DNA of 64,000 nucleotides from the sequence record SRR31156797_3690, one strand, 5' to 3'. Under the pieces are notes generated by a model that was not told the DNA's origin, did no database searches, and saw nothing but the letters and a program-made list of their open reading frames with translations. Made by a program: the position numbers and the translations under genes. The stretch's first letter is position 1. Each line of letters begins with the position of its first letter. Shown here piece after piece: positions 8,083 through 16,353 of this stretch.

Positions 8083-8111
8083 TTGCTTTTTTAATAATTA
8101 TTAATTAAAAT
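8083..8111 (+). promoter_or_regulatory. sigma-A promoter of oppA; spacer holds the candidate TldR target
   Basis: TTGCTT (8083-8088)-17bp-TAAAAT (8106-8111); the spacer contains TTTAA followed by TAATTAT. Confidence 0.7.
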
Positions 8112-8136
8112 CTTATCTAACTTCAGAAATCGAATG

Positions 8137-8151
8137 ATTATTCTGAAAATT
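8137..8151 (+). promoter_or_regulatory. Putative CodY box in the oppA leader
   Basis: ATTATTCTGAAAATT, 13/15 match to AATTTTCWGAAAATT; opp genes are typical CodY targets. Confidence 0.6.
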
Positions 8152-8175: not shown

Positions 8176-9837
8176 ATGAAAAATAAATGGGCCTATGGTT
8201 TAGTAGCTGTGTGTGGCGTGGTGTTAGCCGGCTGTACAACAGGCGGAACAAATAGTTCAAGCAATGACACAGCAACTAGCGGCGATAGCAACGCAGAACA
8301 AGTATTTAACGTAGTGGTTTCACAAGAAATGCCAAGTGCGGATCTTTCATTAGCAACCGATACGATCAGCTTCAGTGCATTGAACAATGTATATGAAGGC
8401 CTGTATCGTTTGGATGCTGACAGCACACCACAACCTGCTGGTGCAGCTGAAGCAGCTGAAGTCAGCGAGGATGGACTAACTTACAAGATCAAATTGCGTG
8501 AAGATGCGAAATGGTCAAATGGTGACCCTGTTACAGCAGCGGATTATGTTTATGGCTGGCAACGGACGGTCAAACCTGAAACTGCATCAGAATATGCGTA
8601 TCTATTTTCACCAGTCAAAAATGCGGATGCCATCACAGCTGGCGATACGGATCCATCAGAGCTAGGCATCAAAGCAGTGGGGGATTACGAATTAGAAATC
8701 ACCCTAGAAAAAGCAACACCTTACTTTGATTACTTATTAGCATTCCCATCATTCTTCCCACAAAATCAAAAAGTAGTGGAAGAAAATGGCGATCAATATG
8801 CATCAACAAGCGACAATGCCGTTTATAATGGACCATTTGTCCTGACTGGTTTTGATGGACCAGGAACGGATACAGAATGGGCTTATGAAAAGAACGATCA
8901 GTATTGGGACAAAGACACTGTTAAATTACAAACGATCAACGTAAGCGTCGTGAAAGAATCCTCAACTGCCTTGAATCTTTTCCAAGATGGTCAAGCAGAT
9001 GATGTCATCCTAACAGGTGAACTGGCGCAACAGATGGCTAACGACGAAGCATTCGTTTCTCAACCAGAAGCAACGACTTCTTACTTAGAATTGAATCAAC
9101 GTGATGAAGATTCACCTTTCCGTAACGAAAATTTGCGTAAAGCAATCTCTTATGCGATCGACCGTGATGCCTTAGTAACATCGATCTTAGGTGATGGTTC
9201 AATTGCTTCAAGTGGTTTGGTTCCAGAAGGCATGACTTTCAGCCCTGGCGATCATACAGACTTCACAGAAGCAGCTGGCAGCGTCATTAGCTACGATCAA
9301 GAGAAAGCAAAAGAATATTGGGAAAAAGCCAAAGAAGAATTAGGAATCGATTCATTAGAATTTGATATCTTAGCTTCTGATACAGACTCAACCAAGAAAA
9401 TCATTGAGTACTTGCAAGACACGATCGAAAAAACATTGGACGGTGTGAAAGTCACGTTAAGTCCAGTTCCATTCTCTGTTCGTTTGGATCGTTCAAATGC
9501 GGGTGATTTTGATACAGTAATGGGCGGTTGGGGTGCTGACTATGCCGATGCAAGTAGCTTTACTGACTTGTTTACGACAGGTAACTCATACAACCGTGGT
9601 CAATGGAGCAGTGAAGAATACGATGCAGCTGTAAAAGCAGCAGGTACGACCAATGCCAATGACCCTGACAAACGTTGGGAAGATTTAGTCAATGCAGAAA
9701 AAATCATTATGAATGAACAAGGTGTCATTCCAGTTTATCAAAAAGCGGAAGCACATTTACGTGCAACAAAAGTCAAAGGTGTTGTTGCTCACGCAGCGGG
9801 CGCACAATACGACTACAAGTGGACATCAATCGAATAA
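8176..9837 (+). CDS. oppA: Oligopeptide ABC transporter substrate-binding lipoprotein OppA
   Basis: Lipobox VLAGC; SBP family 5 signature (YEGLYR...SEDGLTYKIKLREDAKWSNGDPVTAADYV), NGPF, GWGADY. Confidence 0.93.
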   Translation: MKNKWAYGLVAVCGVVLAGCTTGGTNSSSNDTATSGDSNAEQVFNVVVSQEMPSADLSLATDTISFSALNNVYEGLYRLDADSTPQPAGAAEAAEVSEDGLTYKIKLREDAKWSNGDPVTAADYVYGWQRTVKPETASEYAYLFSPVKNADAITAGDTDPSELGIKAVGDYELEITLEKATPYFDYLLAFPSFFPQNQKVVEENGDQYASTSDNAVYNGPFVLTGFDGPGTDTEWAYEKNDQYWDKDTVKLQTINVSVVKESSTALNLFQDGQADDVILTGELAQQMANDEAFVSQPEATTSYLELNQRDEDSPFRNENLRKAISYAIDRDALVTSILGDGSIASSGLVPEGMTFSPGDHTDFTEAAGSVISYDQEKAKEYWEKAKEELGIDSLEFDILASDTDSTKKIIEYLQDTIEKTLDGVKVTLSPVPFSVRLDRSNAGDFDTVMGGWGADYADASSFTDLFTTGNSYNRGQWSSEEYDAAVKAAGTTNANDPDKRWEDLVNAEKIIMNEQGVIPVYQKAEAHLRATKVKGVVAHAAGAQYDYKWTSIE

Positions 9838-9937: not shown

Positions 9938-10273
9938 TTAACTAGTAGCAATCATTAAAAAGAGCAATGAAAGGAATAACAAGAAGACACCAGGCCATAA
10001 CCAAAAGGCGTAACTCTGTTTGCCGACTTGGGATAATTTCAGATAATCTGTTTTATTTTTGGAAAAAGCTTTCTTCATGGAATATTGAAAATGGTCAAAG
10101 AAACCAGAAGCAAATACCCATAAAAAACCGCCAATGATCAAAAAGAACAGCGCCCACAAGAAAAGGGCATCTGAAAGAGCTGCTATGGAAAATTCATTTT
10201 TTATGGCTAACCATCCGCCAGAAATTGCGAGGCATAGGAGGGGTATGAGCCCACTACTTTTTTTTATTTTCAT
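9938..10273 (-). CDS. DUF3899-like small membrane protein
   Basis: 111 aa with 3 hydrophobic segments and an SGFFDHFQYS motif; RBS AAGGAG; typical neighbour of opp loci. Confidence 0.8.
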   Translation of the reverse strand: MKIKKSSGLIPLLCLAISGGWLAIKNEFSIAALSDALFLWALFFLIIGGFLWVFASGFFDHFQYSMKKAFSKNKTDYLKLSQVGKQSYAFWLWPGVFLLFLSLLFLMIATS

Positions 10274-10357
10274 GATCTGACTCCTTTTTAATGATTCGTA
10301 CTATGTTAATTTACATAATTATTGAATAGAAGTCAAAATACTTAAGGGGGAAACTGC

Positions 10358-11299
10358 GTGAACAGCTTTTTGAAATATTTATTGAAACGAGTGTTCTACA
10401 TGGTCTTAACATTATGGCTGATTGCCACGATCACCTTTTTCTTGATGCAATTTTTGCCAGGAACACCATATACGAATGCTGAAAAATTAAGTCCAGAACA
10501 AATTGCCTTGCTAAATGAGCAAGCAGGATTGGACAAACCGATCATTACCCAATATTGGCTTTATTTGACCAATCTACTAAAAGGTGACTTTGGGATCTCT
10601 TTCCAATTTAAAAACCAGCCAGTAGCGAATTTATTATCAGGAAGAATCGGACCTTCACTGCAACTAGGACTACAAGCGATCATCTTTGGTACCTTCTTTG
10701 GGATTATTTTAGGAACGATCTCTGCAATGAAGCAAAATACTTGGGTCGACACAACGTCTACCTTAGTGGCGATCTTAGGGCGTTCGATCCCTAACTTTGT
10801 CTTTGCCGTTTTGCTGCAATATATTTTTGCCATCAAACTAGGGATCTTGCCGATTGCCAAGTGGGAGACCTTTGCCAGCACGATCTTACCGACCGTCGCC
10901 TTAGCGATGTCGCCGTTAGCGGATTCCGCTAGGTTTATTCGAACCGAGATGGTGGAAGTGCTGCATAGTGATTATGTCGAGTTGGCACGAGCAAAAGGTT
11001 TGAGCCGCTGGGAAATTGCCTTCAAGCACGGTTTGCGGAATAGTTTGATTCCGTTATTGACGTTGTTAGGACCGCTAGCTGTCGGTTTGATGACTGGTTC
11101 CCTTGTCGTAGAAAATATTTTTGCGATCCCGGGTATCGGTGAACAGTTCGTAAAATCAATCATGACCAATGACTATCCGACGATCATGGCGGTAACGATC
11201 CTTTATTCCGCAATGTTGGTCTTTGTGATTCTTGTTGTTGATATTTTATATGGAATCGTTGATCCGCGGATCCGAGTTTCAGAAGGGAGTCGTGGCTAA
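10358..11299 (+). CDS. oppB: Oligopeptide ABC permease OppB
   Basis: PGTP, GLDKP, GDFGIS, ARAKGL EAA-like loop, VENIFAIPGIG. Confidence 0.93.
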   Translation: MNSFLKYLLKRVFYMVLTLWLIATITFFLMQFLPGTPYTNAEKLSPEQIALLNEQAGLDKPIITQYWLYLTNLLKGDFGISFQFKNQPVANLLSGRIGPSLQLGLQAIIFGTFFGIILGTISAMKQNTWVDTTSTLVAILGRSIPNFVFAVLLQYIFAIKLGILPIAKWETFASTILPTVALAMSPLADSARFIRTEMVEVLHSDYVELARAKGLSRWEIAFKHGLRNSLIPLLTLLGPLAVGLMTGSLVVENIFAIPGIGEQFVKSIMTNDYPTIMAVTILYSAMLVFVILVVDILYGIVDPRIRVSEGSRG

Positions 11300-12342
11300 T
11301 GGCAGAGAAACCTTACACAGCAAATGATGTTGCTGCCATCGATGCAGCCAAATTTCAACCGTTACAAAAAAATACCAATGAAGAGCGTGAAGCGATCGCA
11401 ACCCCCTCATTAACCTTTTTCCAAGATTCGTGGCGTCGTTTGAAAAAGAACAAAGCCGCTGTTTTCTCAATCGTTTTGTTGCTGATCATTATTACGATCT
11501 CAATCATTACCATTTTTGTCTCGCCACATGATCCGACCGCGCAAAATGTGACCTTTACAAATCTGCCGCCGAAAATTCCCGGTATCAACATCAATGGCTT
11601 AAACGGCTATGCGATGGTGGGAGGCGAGCTAGTAGATAAGTATGCAGCTGCCAATGTACCTGACGGGACATATTTCCTTTTAGGAACGGATGGATTAGGT
11701 CGTGACTTATTGAGTCGTCTATTTGTAGGGACACGTATCTCCTTATTGATTGCGTTTATCGCAGCGATGCTAGATATCATCTTTGGTGTAACCTATGGTT
11801 TGATCTCTGGTCTTTTAGGTGGACGAATCGATAATGTGATGCAACGTTTCCTAGAAATCTTATCAGGTATTCCCAACTTAGTGGTAATGATCTTAATGCT
11901 GGTAGTTTTCGAACCTGGGATCTTCTCGATCGTGGCAGCAATGGCGATCACTAACTGGATTCCAATGGCGCGGATCGTACGGGCCCAAACAATGAAACTA
12001 AAAGATCAGGAATTCGTTTTAGCCGCAACAACGCTGGGGGAAAGCCGTCTCAAGATTGCGATGAAACACGTATTACCAAATATTTCCAGCGTGATCATCG
12101 TACAAATGATGTTCAGTATTCCCTCGGCGATTTTCTTCGAGGCCTTCCTAAGCTTTATTGGGCTAGGATTAAAACCACCTTCAGCATCTTTAGGGATGCT
12201 ACTAAGCGATGGCTACAAAACCTTCTTGTTCCTGCCTTACCAAATGTGGGTACCGGCTGTGACCTTGTCTGTGATTATGATTGGGTTCAATTTGCTGGCA
12301 GACGGTTTGCGTGATGCCTTTGATCCGAAAATGAAAGAGTGA
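11299..12342 (+). CDS. oppC: Oligopeptide ABC permease OppC
   Basis: WRRLKKNK, LGTDGLGRD, EFVLAA, FLSFIGLG, DGLRDAFDPK. Confidence 0.93.
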   Translation: MAEKPYTANDVAAIDAAKFQPLQKNTNEEREAIATPSLTFFQDSWRRLKKNKAAVFSIVLLLIIITISIITIFVSPHDPTAQNVTFTNLPPKIPGININGLNGYAMVGGELVDKYAAANVPDGTYFLLGTDGLGRDLLSRLFVGTRISLLIAFIAAMLDIIFGVTYGLISGLLGGRIDNVMQRFLEILSGIPNLVVMILMLVVFEPGIFSIVAAMAITNWIPMARIVRAQTMKLKDQEFVLAATTLGESRLKIAMKHVLPNISSVIIVQMMFSIPSAIFFEAFLSFIGLGLKPPSASLGMLLSDGYKTFLFLPYQMWVPAVTLSVIMIGFNLLADGLRDAFDPKMKE

Positions 12343-12347
12343 TTGCT

Positions 12348-13394
12348 ATGAAAAAAGTCTTAGAAGTGAAAAACTTAGAAATTTCTTTTGACACCTTTGC
12401 TGGGAAAGTCCAAGCAATCCGCGATGTCAGTTTCGATCTATACAAAGGAGAAACCTTGGCGATCGTGGGCGAATCCGGGAGCGGCAAGTCCGTGACAACC
12501 CGCAGTATCATGGGGTTGTTAGCCAGCAATGCCAATGTCGATAATGGCCAGATCCTCTTCAATGGGACGGACATTTTGAAAAAATCCGAAAAAGAACTGC
12601 AAAAAATCCGTGGCAAGGAAATCGCCATGATTTTCCAAGATCCAATGACTTCACTAGACCCAACGATGCCGATTGGCAAGCAAGTGGCAGAGTCATTGAT
12701 GAAGCACAACAAAATCAGTAAAAAAGAGGGCTTGCGACAAGCGTTGGAATTACTGAACCTTGTCGGCATCCCGAATGCTGAGAAACGCTTGAAAAATTAT
12801 CCGCATCAATTTTCGGGTGGTCAGCGGCAGCGGATCGTTATTGCGATCGCGCTGATCTGTTACCCACAGATCTTAATTGCAGATGAACCGACGACTGCAT
12901 TGGATGTAACGATCCAAGCACAGATCTTAGAGTTATTAAAAGATATTCAGAAGAAAATCAATTCGTCCATCGTCTTTATCACCCATGACTTGGGTGTCGT
13001 TGCCAATGTGGCTGACCGAGTAGCCGTGATGTATGGTGGGAAAATCGTCGAAGTGGGCACCGCAGAAGAAATCTTCTACAACCCGCAACATCCATACACC
13101 TGGGGCTTGTTGGGTTCGATGCCAACGTTAGAAGGGACAGGCGATCGTTTGTACGCGATTCCTGGTTCACCGCCGGATCTGTTGGACCCGCCAACCGGGG
13201 ACGCTTTTTATCCACGAAACGAATTTGCTTTGCAGATCGATGCAGAACAGCAACCGCCGTTCTTTGATGTTTCACCGACCCACAAAGCAGCAACGTGGCT
13301 GTTAGCGCCGCAAGCACCGAAGGTAACTCCGCCGGATGAGATCTTGATTCGCTGGAAAAAATTCCAAGAAAAAAATACTCAGGCATCTGTCTAA
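12348..13394 (+). CDS. oppD: Oligopeptide ABC ATPase OppD
   Basis: [30 protein letters not shown]; alternative GTG start at 12339. Confidence 0.93.
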   Translation: MKKVLEVKNLEISFDTFAGKVQAIRDVSFDLYKGETLAIVGESGSGKSVTTRSIMGLLASNANVDNGQILFNGTDILKKSEKELQKIRGKEIAMIFQDPMTSLDPTMPIGKQVAESLMKHNKISKKEGLRQALELLNLVGIPNAEKRLKNYPHQFSGGQRQRIVIAIALICYPQILIADEPTTALDVTIQAQILELLKDIQKKINSSIVFITHDLGVVANVADRVAVMYGGKIVEVGTAEEIFYNPQHPYTWGLLGSMPTLEGTGDRLYAIPGSPPDLLDPPTGDAFYPRNEFALQIDAEQQPPFFDVSPTHKAATWLLAPQAPKVTPPDEILIRWKKFQEKNTQASV

Positions 13395-13408: not shown

Positions 13409-14347
13409 TTGGAAAAAGTTTTACTTGAAGTAAAGAATCTCAAACAATATTTTAACGTTGGCCGCAAAGACGAAGTCAAAGCCGTCGATGATATCTCCTT
13501 CCAAATCTATGAAGGAGAAACCTTTGGTCTAGTAGGTGAATCCGGAAGCGGAAAATCGACCACTGGACGGACGGTGATTCGTTTGAATAATCCTACCGGA
13601 GGCGAAGTTCTTTTTGATGGACAAGATGTTATGAAAATCAAAGGCAAGAAACCGCTGGCTGATTTTCGCCGGGAAGTTCAAATGGTCTTCCAAGATCCTT
13701 ATGCCTCCTTGAATCCACGGATGAAAGTTCGCGACATTATTGCCGAAGGGATCGATATCAACGGATTAGCTAAAAATGAAAAAGAACGTAATGATCGGGT
13801 GGATGAACTCTTGCGAACCGTCGGACTAAACCCAAGTCATGGGACCCGTTATCCTCATGAATTTTCAGGGGGACAACGTCAGCGGATCGGAATCGCCCGA
13901 GCATTAGCCGTCGATCCAAAATTCATCATTTGTGATGAACCGATCTCGGCATTGGATGTTTCGATCCAAGCCCAAGTTGTCAACTTGCTGCAAGATCTGC
14001 AAGAAGAACATAAATTGACGTACTTGTTTATCGCCCATGATTTATCGATGGTCAAACACATCAGCGATCGGATCGGCGTGATGCACAACGGCAAACTGCT
14101 AGAAGTAGGAACCAGTGATGAAATCTATCATTACGGGGTCCATCCGTATACTGAAAGTCTTTTATCAGCGATTCCGCTGCCAGATCCTGACCATGAGCGT
14201 CAACGCAAACGGATCAAATACGTCAGCGAACCAAACGATAACCAAGAACGAGCAATGGAAGAGATCGCACCAGGACATTTCGTTTATGCCACGAAACAAG
14301 AAGCCAAGATCTACCAAGAAAAGTTAGCACAAAAAAAGGGGAACTAG
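13409..14347 (+). CDS. oppF: Oligopeptide ABC ATPase OppF
   Basis: [34 protein letters not shown] start behind AGGAG. Confidence 0.93.
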
Positions 14348-14377: not shown

Positions 14378-15376
14378 ATGAAACTGGGTGTTTTAAAAGC
14401 ATACAAATTTCGGATCTATCCTAATGGACAGCAAAAACAGTTTTTCATCGAAACCTTCGGCTGTGTTCGGTTTACGTACAATCAACTGCTGGAGGCGAAG
14501 ATGGAGGAGCTGGCCAACAATGAAGCAAAGCAAGGGTTGACGCCAGCCAAACTAAAAAAGGAGTATCCTTTTTTGAAGGAGACCGATAGTTTGGCATTGG
14601 CGAATGCACAAAGGAATCTGGACCGAGCGTTTCGAAATTACTTTCAAAAGCGGGCTGGCTTTCCAAAAATGAAAACCAAAAAAAGTATTTGGCAATCGTA
14701 TACTACGAATAATCAGCAGCACACCATTTACTTTGAAGAGGATCAAATCAAGCTGCCAAAGCTCAAAACACTGGTTCCAGTAAAAAAGCATCGGGAGATC
14801 AAAGGGAAAATCAAATCGGCAACGATCTCAGCGAAAAACAATGAAGAGTTTTATATCTCGATTCTTTGTTTGGAAGAGATCACACCACTCCCGAAACAGC
14901 AAGCGTCTATCGCGGTTGTTTATGATCCGCAGCAGCTGATCAAAGCCAACCAATCGGTACCGGTCACTTGTGAGCATGCGATCCAAACAAAACAGAAGCT
15001 GACACGAGCAGAACGCAAACTTCAGGTGAAAGCTACGGCGGTCAAACGGAAAAAAATCCTTTTGACTCAGGCACGAAATTATCAGAAGCTAAAAGGAAAA
15101 GTCGCTCGCCTCTATCGTTTTCACTGCTGTCAAAAGCGGGAATTCATCGATCAAGTCAGTTATCATCTCGTAAAACAGTACGATACAATCTATTTGGAAC
15201 AAATTGCTGAAGAAACGGTTCTAAAAGCCGGTCATTACAGCATCAGCGATTGGCATCAGTTTGTTCGCAAAATCCAGTACAAAGCGCAGTGGTACGGCAA
15301 AGAACTGCGTTTTGTCACGTTGGACACGCAGGACCAACAGAAGCTAGAGCGGCTCTCAGGCGAAATGAGCAGCTGA
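14378..15376 (+). CDS. tldR: Nuclease-dead TnpB homologue (TldR-type RNA-guided repressor), oppF-associated
   Basis: IS200/IS605 TnpB N-terminus (KAYKFRIYPN..FGCVRFTYN, LKKEYPFLKE.DSLAL, GFPK.K, LPKLK); RuvC-I GIDLG replaced by AVVYD; RuvC-II Glu kept (DTIYLE); ends without the CxxC zinc ribbon or RuvC-III; strong GGAGGAG RBS 30 bp after oppF; no tnpA. Confidence 0.85.
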   Translation: MKLGVLKAYKFRIYPNGQQKQFFIETFGCVRFTYNQLLEAKMEELANNEAKQGLTPAKLKKEYPFLKETDSLALANAQRNLDRAFRNYFQKRAGFPKMKTKKSIWQSYTTNNQQHTIYFEEDQIKLPKLKTLVPVKKHREIKGKIKSATISAKNNEEFYISILCLEEITPLPKQQASIAVVYDPQQLIKANQSVPVTCEHAIQTKQKLTRAERKLQVKATAVKRKKILLTQARNYQKLKGKVARLYRFHCCQKREFIDQVSYHLVKQYDTIYLEQIAEETVLKAGHYSISDWHQFVRKIQYKAQWYGKELRFVTLDTQDQQKLERLSGEMSS

Positions 15377-15477
15377 TCTGCTTGAACTGGAAGGAACGCC
15401 AGGGATCGCCTAGGGTATAGAAAAAATCTTTATGATTTTTGTTTCTAGGAACCACGTTCACTAATTATGATTAACCA
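15377..15477 (+). ncRNA. omega-RNA-like guide RNA of the TnpB/TldR (scaffold to 15461, guide from 15462)
   Basis: CTGG/CCAG stem whose loop GAACG (15394-15398) pairs with CGTTC (15455-15459) as a pseudoknot; CCTAGGG/TTCTAGG and AAAAATC/GATTTTT stems; scaffold ends in GTTCAC like IS605-group right ends; guide TAATTATGATTAACCA; exact ends inferred. Confidence 0.75.
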
Positions 15478-15478
15478 G

Positions 15479-15522
15479 CAACCCCCTGCCAAACTATGGT
15501 TTAGCAGGGGGTTGTATTTTTT
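15479..15522. terminator. Terminator closing the guide RNA, shared with the convergent NrtR-like gene
   Basis: CAACCCCCTGCCAAAC-TATG-GTTTAGCAGGGGGTTG then TATTTTTT. Confidence 0.85.
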
Positions 15523-16353
15523 TTACATTTTATCACCTAAAAATGCGTCATTTAAGCGATAGATCTTTGAGGGACGCCCGATGCCAACGGGCTTTTCGCC
15601 GACCTCCGTAAAATATTGAAGCATGGATTTTTTAAAGTTGGAATGATCGATCATTTTAAAATCGATCCCTAAAAACTTGGCGAATACTTTACGGGCTTCC
15701 GTGATCGTAAAGTCTTTGCCTAACACAAGAAGCACTTGCGGCTCGTGCTCCATCTTATTGGCAACCCGTTTGAAGGCTTTGAGAATGATCGCGCTGTGGT
15801 CAAAAGCCAGCGTATCTTTTCCAACAGAGGCACCAGTCACCAGGTCAAGAATGATCTCGATCTCACCGCTGGTCAAATAGATTTGATTGGCTTTTCTTTC
15901 CAGAGAAAACCAGCGTACCTGATTCGCATCGTCCCCAGCACTTAAGGGCTCTTCACCAATAAATGCCAAATAGCTGACGGTGATTACCCACCCACGTGGA
16001 TCACGACCAGGGGTGCTGAAGGTGTGCAGCTGTTCGATGTTTTGTTTGGAGATAGTGACCCCGATCTCTTCTTGGGTCTCACGGATCACACTTTGACCTG
16101 TCGATTCATTCGGATTGACGAAGCCCCCCGGCAATGCCCAAGAATTGCGGAAGGGATGGCCTTTTCTTTGGATCAGCGCAATTTTGAGTTGTTCTTCTTC
16201 TTTGTTGTAACACATCAACACCATATCGACGGTTACGGAGGGTTTCTCGTATTTCGGCTGATCTTGTGCCTGATACCACGTAAGAAAGTCTGCTTCAGAA
16301 GCTTCTTTCTCATAGTAGTGTTTTTCAGCTGATTTTGAGGTAAATTCTTTCAT
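15523..16353 (-). CDS. NrtR-like Nudix hydrolase / wHTH transcriptional regulator
   Basis: PSVTVD, WALPGGFV..NES....IRETQEEIG Nudix box, RDPRGW, LAFDH, C-terminal NFKK and GRPSKIYR. Confidence 0.85.
   Translation of the reverse strand: MKEFTSKSAEKHYYEKEASEADFLTWYQAQDQPKYEKPSVTVDMVLMCYNKEEEQLKIALIQRKGHPFRNSWALPGGFVNPNESTGQSVIRETQEEIGVTISKQNIEQLHTFSTPGRDPRGWVITVSYLAFIGEEPLSAGDDANQVRWFSLERKANQIYLTSGEIEIILDLVTGASVGKDTLAFDHSAIILKAFKRVANKMEHEPQVLLVLGKDFTITEARKVFAKFLGIDFKMIDHSNFKKSMLQYFTEVGEKPVGIGRPSKIYRLNDAFLGDKM

Follow-up and report, generated by a model that had tools for sequence, protein, structure and literature searches.

Does the short interval downstream of a TnpB-like gene encode a guide RNA, and if so, of what kind and acting on what? 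We addressed this question for positions 15377-15522 of a 64,000-nucleotide stretch of sequence record SRR31156797_3690 (hereafter the window, meaning the whole stretch). A preliminary description had read this interval as an omega-RNA-like guide locus with a pseudoknot, without a transposon-end hairpin and with its own terminator, and the stems, the GTTCAC hexamer, the guide stretch and the terminator that it listed were all found in place when the sequence was read. Our results indicate that the region is the guide RNA (gRNA) gene of an oppF-associated TldR, a TnpB-derived protein, in a chromosome of the Enterococcus casseliflavus group. Very probably, its product is the fixed guide of this TldR, which would bind the spacer of the oppA promoter and hinder RNA polymerase. 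The evidence gathered here consists of homology, an RNA structure supported by covariation, the decay of the catalytic site, synteny, and a conserved site made of a target-adjacent motif (TAM) and a seed; transcription, processing, binding and repression are presumed, by inference or from the literature on homologues.

The conserved core of the gRNA scaffold extends over positions 15384-15461 of the + strand, and in the alignment of orthologues conservation begins at GAACTGG (15384) and continues into the guide. Within this core, stem A is formed by CTGG (15387-15390) and CCAG (15399-15402), which enclose the loop AAGGAACG. Stem B is composed of an outer part, where CCTAGGG (15409-15415) faces TTCTAGG (15443-15449) with positions 15409-15414 paired to 15444-15449, and of an inner part, AAAAATC (15422-15428) with GATTTTT (15434-15440). 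A pseudoknot of 4 bp joins positions 15394-15397 to 15456-15459, within GAACG (15394-15398) and CGTTC (15455-15459), and the scaffold ends in GTTCAC (15456-15461). For the comparative analysis, the regions following the stop codon were taken from the window and from 35 loci of relatives; after dropping 6 exact duplicates from the same genomes (L007-L010, L013 and L034), 30 distinct orthologous gRNAs were obtained, all of them located directly after the TldR gene, and were aligned in two versions (A1 and A2), with base pairs being tested on A1.

Pairing was conserved in 95.5% of 688 cells, with double changes in 9 of the 23 pairs, and the covariation score was reached by none of 500 column shuffles. 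When the partners were slid by 1-3 columns, pairing fell to 35-62%; this control is favoured by the fact that the tested structure was written from the window sequence, itself included in the alignment, and the compensatory changes are independent of that. Structural covariation among orthologues, on which the preliminary description had let its proposal depend, is therefore present. The pseudoknot helix is paired in 100% of the cells (30/30 sequences), and two of its four pairs display compensatory changes (AU, GU and GC in 14, 10 and 6 sequences, and AU and GC in 19 and 11, respectively), which sustains the reading of an omega-RNA-like guide locus with a real pseudoknot. The helix had originally been drawn over the full GAACG/CGTTC complementarity; its four pairs stand, and the fifth, G15398-C15455, does not, being paired in 18/30 without compensation, with position 15398 pairing with 15391 instead in 11/30 (AU in 8, UA in 2 and CG in 1). 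In the CCTAGGG/TTCTAGG stem, the outermost pair, G15415-T15443, fails in 4 of the 30 sequences. The covariance model search that had been suggested was carried out with a model (R1) built from A2, which gave one match in the window at E <= 0.01 (107 bits; a second match, at E 0.69, was not significant) and also matched all 10 fetched loci of relatives, namely 9 TnpB omega RNAs and one E. faecalis-type locus; the Rfam family Ref70 matched the window below its threshold, at 36 bits.

Immediately upstream, the tldR gene (14378-15376, + strand) encodes a TnpB-like product of 332 aa; HTH_OrfB_IS605 matches it with E 3.6e-16, the match to OrfB_IS605 is weak, and of the Cas12f1-like TNB (zinc-finger) domain it covers only profile positions 1-22 of 60. 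Structures of ISDra2 TnpB (PDB 8h1j and 8exa) match residues 7-310 with E ~4e-33 (HMMER). A MAFFT alignment was built with the window protein, four related full-length TnpBs, two E. faecalis-type proteins and two other TldRs. The aligned TnpBs carry the motifs GIDLG, CIEDL, HHDRD and CxxC...CxxC, whereas the window protein displays VVYDP where the TnpBs have GIDLG, with the Glu retained, and its open reading frame (ORF) ends ~20 aa after WYGKEL, so that the third RuvC motif (DRD) and CxxC...CxxC are missing by truncation. The first RuvC Asp is ambiguous, as HMMER aligns a D there and MAFFT disagrees; the loss of the third motif is unambiguous. We thus regard the window protein as a TnpB homologue with a broken RuvC DED triad and a lost zinc finger, predicted to be nuclease-dead. 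It is 45-48% identical to related Enterococcaceae TnpBs and ~42% identical to the E. faecalis-type TldR of solved structure, and its closest named homologues are those of E. casseliflavus NBRC 100478 (98%) and E. innesii (99%, best segment).

The descent of the gRNA from TnpB omega RNAs was traced at the element boundary. Nine TnpB element copies, from different genomes, resemble one another as far as ...TAGTTCAC, where the similarity stops abruptly, and this point is the right-end boundary of the TnpB elements. The scaffold/guide junction of the window coincides with this boundary: the TldR scaffold terminates in GTTCAC, the same hexamer as the TnpB right end, and the guide TAATTAT comes next. 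The TnpB omega RNAs (L036-L042, L044 and L045) resemble the window in having a first stem with a GGAAC loop, a stem B, and the same 3' end at the boundary, with the guide starting immediately after. Conversely, the TnpB elements retain GIDLG, E, DRD and CxxC...CxxC and are multi-copy, with up to 9 matches per genome, and their guide varies with the flank whereas the TldR guide is fixed.

The stretch between stem B and the boundary, on the other hand, is not the same length in these groups. In TnpB omega RNAs (9/9), the tail after stem B is 52 nt long and carries a hairpin of ~45 nt (-13 to -19 kcal/mol) that ends 7 nt before the element boundary, the core amounting to 146 nt; in E. faecalis-type gRNAs (5/5), the tail has 22-23 nt with a hairpin of 7-8 bp and the core has 106-107 nt; and in the window clade (30/30), a linker of only 4-6 nt separates CTAGGAA from GTTCAC, without a hairpin, in a core of ~76-78 nt. 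This comparison bears out the earlier suggestion that a subterminal hairpin was lost, as the window clade, relative to its relatives, appears to have lost the one between stem B and GTTCAC. Judging only from its position 7 nt from the boundary, the lost hairpin would be the one bound by TnpA; the ends of IS608 and ISDra2 agree with a TnpA-bound hairpin at that position. Two other interpretations were discarded along the way: a first covariance-model alignment suggested that the TnpB omega RNAs also had no hairpin after stem B, which was overturned by reading these loci to the true element boundary, and the identification of stem B with the right-end hairpin was dropped once this had been done.

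The claim of immobility also held. The gRNA locus is single-copy, being found once in the window and once in the nearest genome (G001, 4 Mb, with 84% of sampled words shared with the window, used here for the genome-wide site searches), and oppF is next to tldR in 33 of the 35 fetched loci of relatives. No tnpA-like ORF lies beside the locus, whose neighbours are the opp genes and a NUDIX/NrtR-like gene; the left transposon end was not explicitly searched for. Hence, what was found departs from the omega RNA of a mobile IS200/IS605 element, the locus being single-copy and syntenic, its hairpin absent, and its guide positions 1-7 invariant among 30 loci; these data support the RNA as an immobile, omega-RNA-derived guide of the upstream TnpB-derived protein.

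Following the GTTCAC junction, the guide region TAATTATGATTAACCAG occupies positions 15462-15478 (+ strand), and 16-17 nt of it had been taken as the functional guide. This could not be upheld: the only invariant guide positions (30/30) are 1-7 (TAATTAT), 9 (A) and 12 (A), with position 8 being G in 21 and A in 9 sequences, and the full 16-mer had 44 matches with <=3 mismatches in the nearest genome compared with 45 for the control, its sole exact match being the gRNA gene itself. Because the full 16-mer performs at chance level and the conserved guide is shorter, a working guide of 16-17 nt is not supported. From conservation in the 30 orthologues, the functional seed/guide is delimited to TAATTATGA (15462-15470, + strand), followed by a spacer (15471-15478, + strand) with a conserved AACC at 15473-15476 (guide positions 12-15: A in 30/30, A in 26/30, C in 29/30 and C in 29/30). 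In the published accounts, homologues use a guide of 9-11 nt with a seed of ~6 nt (bioRxiv 10.1101/2023.11.30.569447; 10.64898/2026.09.22.753285), and RNA immunoprecipitation sequencing (RIP-seq) gave guides of 9-11 nt for the E. faecalis homologue and of variable lengths for the E. casseliflavus one (bioRxiv 10.1101/2023.11.30.569447).

An intrinsic-terminator-like element, folding into a G+C-rich 12-bp hairpin followed by eight T residues, is located at 15479-15522 (+ strand). According to our own scan, 30 of 34 distinct relatives have a hairpin with a T-rich tail past the guide, its stem starting at +17 in 6 loci (including the window and its nearest kin), at +20 in 5, and, by eye, between ~+16 and +32; the scan is crude, with early starts at +7 to +11 arising from weak outer pairs and with 4 of the 34 hairpins, visible by eye without a T-rich tail, being missed. 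A 'predicted gRNA terminator' is also mentioned in a published account (bioRxiv 10.64898/2026.09.22.753285). The terminator is conserved but, contrary to the preliminary description, does not set the length of the guide, since the spacer exceeds the conserved guide in length, the spacing differs among relatives, and the published mature ends in E. faecalis lie 9-11 nt past the scaffold. The hairpin of the window directly adjoins the stop codon of the convergent gene and may serve both genes.

A pattern search combining TAM and guide located the predicted TldR binding site at 8090-8103 (+ strand), where the TAM TTTAA (8090-8094) is followed by the target TAATTATTA (8095-8103), 73 nt before the start of oppA; guide positions 1-7 and 9 match, and position 8 is a G versus a T. 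This site is contained in a promoter-like block (8083-8111, + strand) which, by our own reading of the hexamers, comprises TTGCTT (8083-8088), a 17-nt spacer holding the TAM and the target, and TAAAAT (8106-8111); our promoter scan did not list this pair, which has 8 of 12 matches at a threshold of 9. We aligned 13 oppA upstream regions, which were chosen by containing TTTAATAATTA, so that the presence of the motif in them is no test. In 12 of the 13, the motif lies within a conserved block, cTTG(C/A)(T/A)T-TTTTAATAATTA(T/A/C)T(A/G)ATTA(A/C)AAT, with diverged upstream flanks, and we read this block as a putative -35 element, a 17-nt spacer and a -10 element.

With these elements, the proposed mechanism would run as follows. 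The RNA would be transcribed with tldR or just after it, ending at the terminator (15479-15522), and would fold into two stems and a 4-bp pseudoknot between the first-stem loop and the GUUC that immediately precedes the guide; TldR (14378-15376) would bind this RNA, and host RNases would trim its 3' end. The complex would then recognise the TTTAA TAM and a 6-7-nt seed, TAATTA(T), in the oppA promoter spacer (8090-8103), where it would hinder RNA polymerase, leading to the repression of oppA without DNA cutting.

Several observations weigh against this mechanism. The 78-nt scaffold (15384-15461) folds no better than shuffled sequences (z = -1.15, with 24 of 200 at least as good), and the favourable value of the full 146 nt (z = -3.48, 0 of 200 shuffles as good) is driven by the terminator; the structure is thus considered real because of covariation, not because of folding energy. 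The complementarity to the oppA site is short and imperfect, with 8/9 positions in the window and only the 6-nt TAATTA common to all aligned clades; that TAATTA alone is shared across clades agrees with the published 6-nt seed. Sites with a TAM and the 7-nt seed are not enriched in the nearest 4-Mb genome (5, versus 8 for the reversed control); the oppA site is among the five, and its distance from tldR equals that in the window. The conserved AACC is not complementary to the oppA site and is left unexplained by the target; possible roles are a signal for processing or a contribution to the terminator context. As for expression, the public runs searched yielded only contigs or 2 partial reads. 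In public ant metatranscriptomes (two runs, contigs only, which cannot show ends), the whole stretch is evenly covered, showing neither ends nor transcription; in gut metatranscriptomes (two raw-read runs), no reads were placed from one, and 2 from the other, lying only partly on 15344-15471 and running into unlike sequence, which probably derive from the scaffold of a relative. Finally, deletion of tldR-gRNA in E. faecalis under standard culture gave no de-repression of oppA (bioRxiv 10.64898/2026.09.22.753285).

The same data bear on other explanations of the locus. One of them is a free-standing small RNA (sRNA) of the Ref70 family, acting in trans by pairing with mRNAs and independent of any TnpB-like protein. 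In Rfam, Ref70 is listed as no more than an sRNA of Enterococcus, the 3' hairpin is terminator-like, and pairing of the 'guide', A/U-rich and single-stranded, with A/U-rich leaders is conceivable. We nevertheless consider this very improbable, given that the scaffold shares homology of sequence and structure with TnpB omega RNAs and ends at their right-end boundary, that it directly follows the TldR gene in all 30 distinct loci, and that the conserved complementary site bears the TAM expected for DNA recognition; moreover, published RIP-seq and cryo-electron microscopy found homologous RNAs bound to TldR. A functionless, decaying remnant of an IS200/IS605-type element, that is, a dead tnpB with a relic of the right end, seems to us just as improbable. 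It would account for the broken RuvC site and truncated C-terminus, for the absence of transposon ends (the left end not having been explicitly searched for), for the split ORF of E. innesii, and for the E. faecalis deletion, which gave no phenotype in standard culture. However, neutral decay would not preserve the ORF, the helices, the guide and the target site, and most of the 30 loci, in several genus-level groups, have an intact ORF, the helices are maintained by compensatory changes, guide positions 1-7 are the same in 30/30, and the TAM plus seed site is conserved at oppA; the literature on homologues already indicates purifying selection and measurable repression.

Least probable of all, and next to negligible in our estimate, is that a mobile insertion sequence here encodes a TnpB/omega RNA nuclease that is still active. 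Protein and RNA are clear homologues of TnpB and omega RNA, the two alignment methods disagree on the first RuvC Asp, and the Glu is kept; yet the protein lacks the third catalytic motif and the zinc finger, the locus occurs once and in conserved synteny, with no right-end hairpin and no tnpA-like ORF as neighbour, and published interference assays gave no nuclease activity for TldRs (bioRxiv 10.1101/2023.11.30.569447). All three rivals are contradicted by the comparative data, which leaves the fixed guide RNA of a TldR acting at oppA as our preferred reading.

Regarding gene order, Pfam searches of the ORFs in the window gave oppA-DUF3899-oppBCDF-tldR, followed by the gRNA gene. The presumed regulated gene, oppA (8176-9837, + strand), encodes a solute-binding protein (SBP_bac_5, E 1.1e-85); a DUF3899 gene (9938-10273, - strand; E 3e-11) interrupts the operon in antisense; oppB (10358-11299), oppC (11299-12342), oppD (12339-13394) and oppF (13409-14347), all on the + strand, were assigned through BPD_transp_1, OppC_N, ABC_tran and oligo_HPY; tldR starts at 14378, closely after the end of oppF at 14347; and the NUDIX/NrtR-like gene assigned by Pfam (15523-16353, - strand) converges on the gRNA gene, with its stop codon next to the terminator hairpin. 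A protein search over 134 genomes of the family gave matches in 106, TldRs and TnpBs taken together. Departures from the common arrangement were observed in a few relatives. Two loci of one genus-level group (L028 and L033, from G049 and G051) have TldR and gRNA without oppF or oppA within ~7 kb upstream and retain a TAATTATAA-type guide, so the system can occur outside the opp operon. In E. innesii GAL7 (L005/L013, G062), tldR is split into overlapping segments (1-226 and 225-332) with one internal TGA and an intact gRNA, and is either a frameshifted pseudogene or the result of a sequencing error. In L011 and L012 (G061 and G064), the tldR frame extends into the gRNA scaffold, with its stop inside stem B, and the post-guide hairpin is broken by a long insertion.

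Other candidate sites were also recorded. Between DUF3899 and oppB (10313-10326, - strand), TTCAA followed by TAATTATGT matches guide positions 1-8 with a non-canonical TAM; besides the window, it occurs only in close relatives, in 4 of the 5 that have 8-kb flanks, is missing in L002 and L011, and coincides in part with promoter-like hexamers of either strand. Weak conserved matches to TT[CT]A[AG] followed by TAATTCTAA inside oppD of distant relatives were rejected as coding-sequence conservation with a seed mismatch. Upstream of oppA, a CodY-box-like element, ATTATTCTGAAAATT (8137-8151, + strand), is kept in all 13 aligned regions and resembles AATTTTCWGAAAATT, which we take to be the CodY consensus; together with TTCAGAA (8122-8128) it makes up an inverted repeat, TTCAGAA...TTCTGAA (8122-8151). 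From these sequence features, the oppA promoter is probably also under CodY-type control.

In the nearest genome, TTTAA followed by TAATTATA(C/T) lies ~220 nt upstream of a gene for a POT-family (PTR2) di/tripeptide transporter (L060:984-997, equivalent to G001:C18:40383-40396), and the site was also located in L064-L068. The 13-mer TTTAA-TAATTATA is kept in 5 of 8 genus genomes, altered in one, absent in one and cut by a contig end in one, and its flanks are unalignable by BLAST in 2 of the 5 keepers, the more distant L067 and L068. This site may represent a second target of TldR, or no more than a promoter element; it lies beyond the 150 bp that the published target survey considered (bioRxiv 10.64898/2026.09.22.753285). 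Three further sites with a TAM and seed occur in the same genome (L061:1009-1022, L062:1002-1015 and L063:992-1005): one, TTTAT followed by TAATTATGG, matches 8/9 guide positions and overlaps the ribosome-binding site and start codon of a phosphotransferase system EIIBC gene, and the other two are found inside a branched-chain amino-acid permease gene and ~20 nt upstream of a gene for ornithine carbamoyltransferase.

The comparison with Rfam provided a link to a recorded sRNA family. RF02841 (Ref70, Enterococcus sRNA 70) aligns over its whole length with 15381-15473, CUAAUUAU included, with 36 bits and E 2.7e-4 for a gathering score of 115, placing the window as homologous to the curated family and outside it. 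Ref70 passes its cut-off in 21 of the 134 family genomes, is found a short way downstream of the TldR match in both pairs that were checked (G098 and G116), and its model covers only the longer E. faecalis-type scaffold. The Rfam Ref70 sRNA family is the E. faecalis-type TldR guide RNA. Within the literature collection searched, no paper linking Ref70 to TldR was found, the two hits for Ref70 and Enterococcus being unrelated by title, and the words 'sRNA', 'hairpin' and 'pseudoknot' do not occur in the 2023 preprint (bioRxiv 10.1101/2023.11.30.569447).

The system itself is already known: biochemical, genetic and structural evidence for it has been published, and the work covered a homologue of the same species group. 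According to these reports, oppF-associated TldRs, one of them from E. casseliflavus, were studied by RIP-seq and use the TAM TTTAA/TTTAT (bioRxiv 10.1101/2023.11.30.569447; 10.64898/2026.09.22.753285), overexpression in E. faecalis V583 represses oppA ~40-fold, and cryo-electron microscopy of the TldR-bound gRNA displays a pseudoknot, a triplex and two stems (bioRxiv 10.64898/2026.09.22.753285). The published oppF-associated TldRs (Efa1TldR and EcaTldR) share with the window the order oppA-DUF3899-oppBCDF-tldR-gRNA, as in E. faecalis V583, the TAM TTTAA, the seed TAATTAT, a target upstream of oppA, the gRNA pseudoknot, and a protein without zinc finger and third RuvC motif. The window protein, being 98% identical to that of the E. 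casseliflavus type-strain genome, may essentially be the published EcaTldR. A version of the 2023 TldR preprint reportedly appeared in Nature in 2024.

Differences from the E. faecalis type concern the gRNA and its site. The core in the window has ~76-78 instead of 106-107 nt, the 7-8-bp hairpin is absent and the apex of stem B is shorter; guide position 8 is G in the window, a mismatch to the oppA site, and U in E. faecalis; and the window site lies in the promoter spacer, whereas the site of E. faecalis V583 is described as downstream of the transcription start site. The guide-adjacent hairpin absent here is probably, by inferred mapping, the 'Stem 2' contacted by the WED domain in the solved E. 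faecalis complex. The fliC_P-associated TldRs of enterobacterial prophages (bioRxiv 10.1101/2023.11.30.569447) are alike in being nuclease-dead TnpB derivatives with a fixed guide that repress a host gene promoter, and differ in belonging to another clade, being prophage-borne, and using a 16-nt guide against fliC. A broader proposal, which we regard as rather doubtful and put forward only tentatively, is that the casseliflavus-type TldR uses a naturally minimised scaffold with a core of ~78 nt, lacking both the long stem-B apex and the guide-adjacent hairpin, and that a second gene for peptide uptake may also be within reach of its short seed.

Transposon nucleases turned into RNA-guided transcription factors are of high general interest, and the present analysis makes minor additions to their description, namely the three-step reduction of the scaffold, the identity of Ref70 as a TldR gRNA, and the conserved TAM plus seed site upstream of a POT-family transporter gene, some of which the supplements of the preprints may already cover. 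Taken together, the reduction from 146 to 106-107 and then to ~76-78 nt shows which parts of the RNA are dispensable in nature, and could guide the development of smaller programmable repressors.

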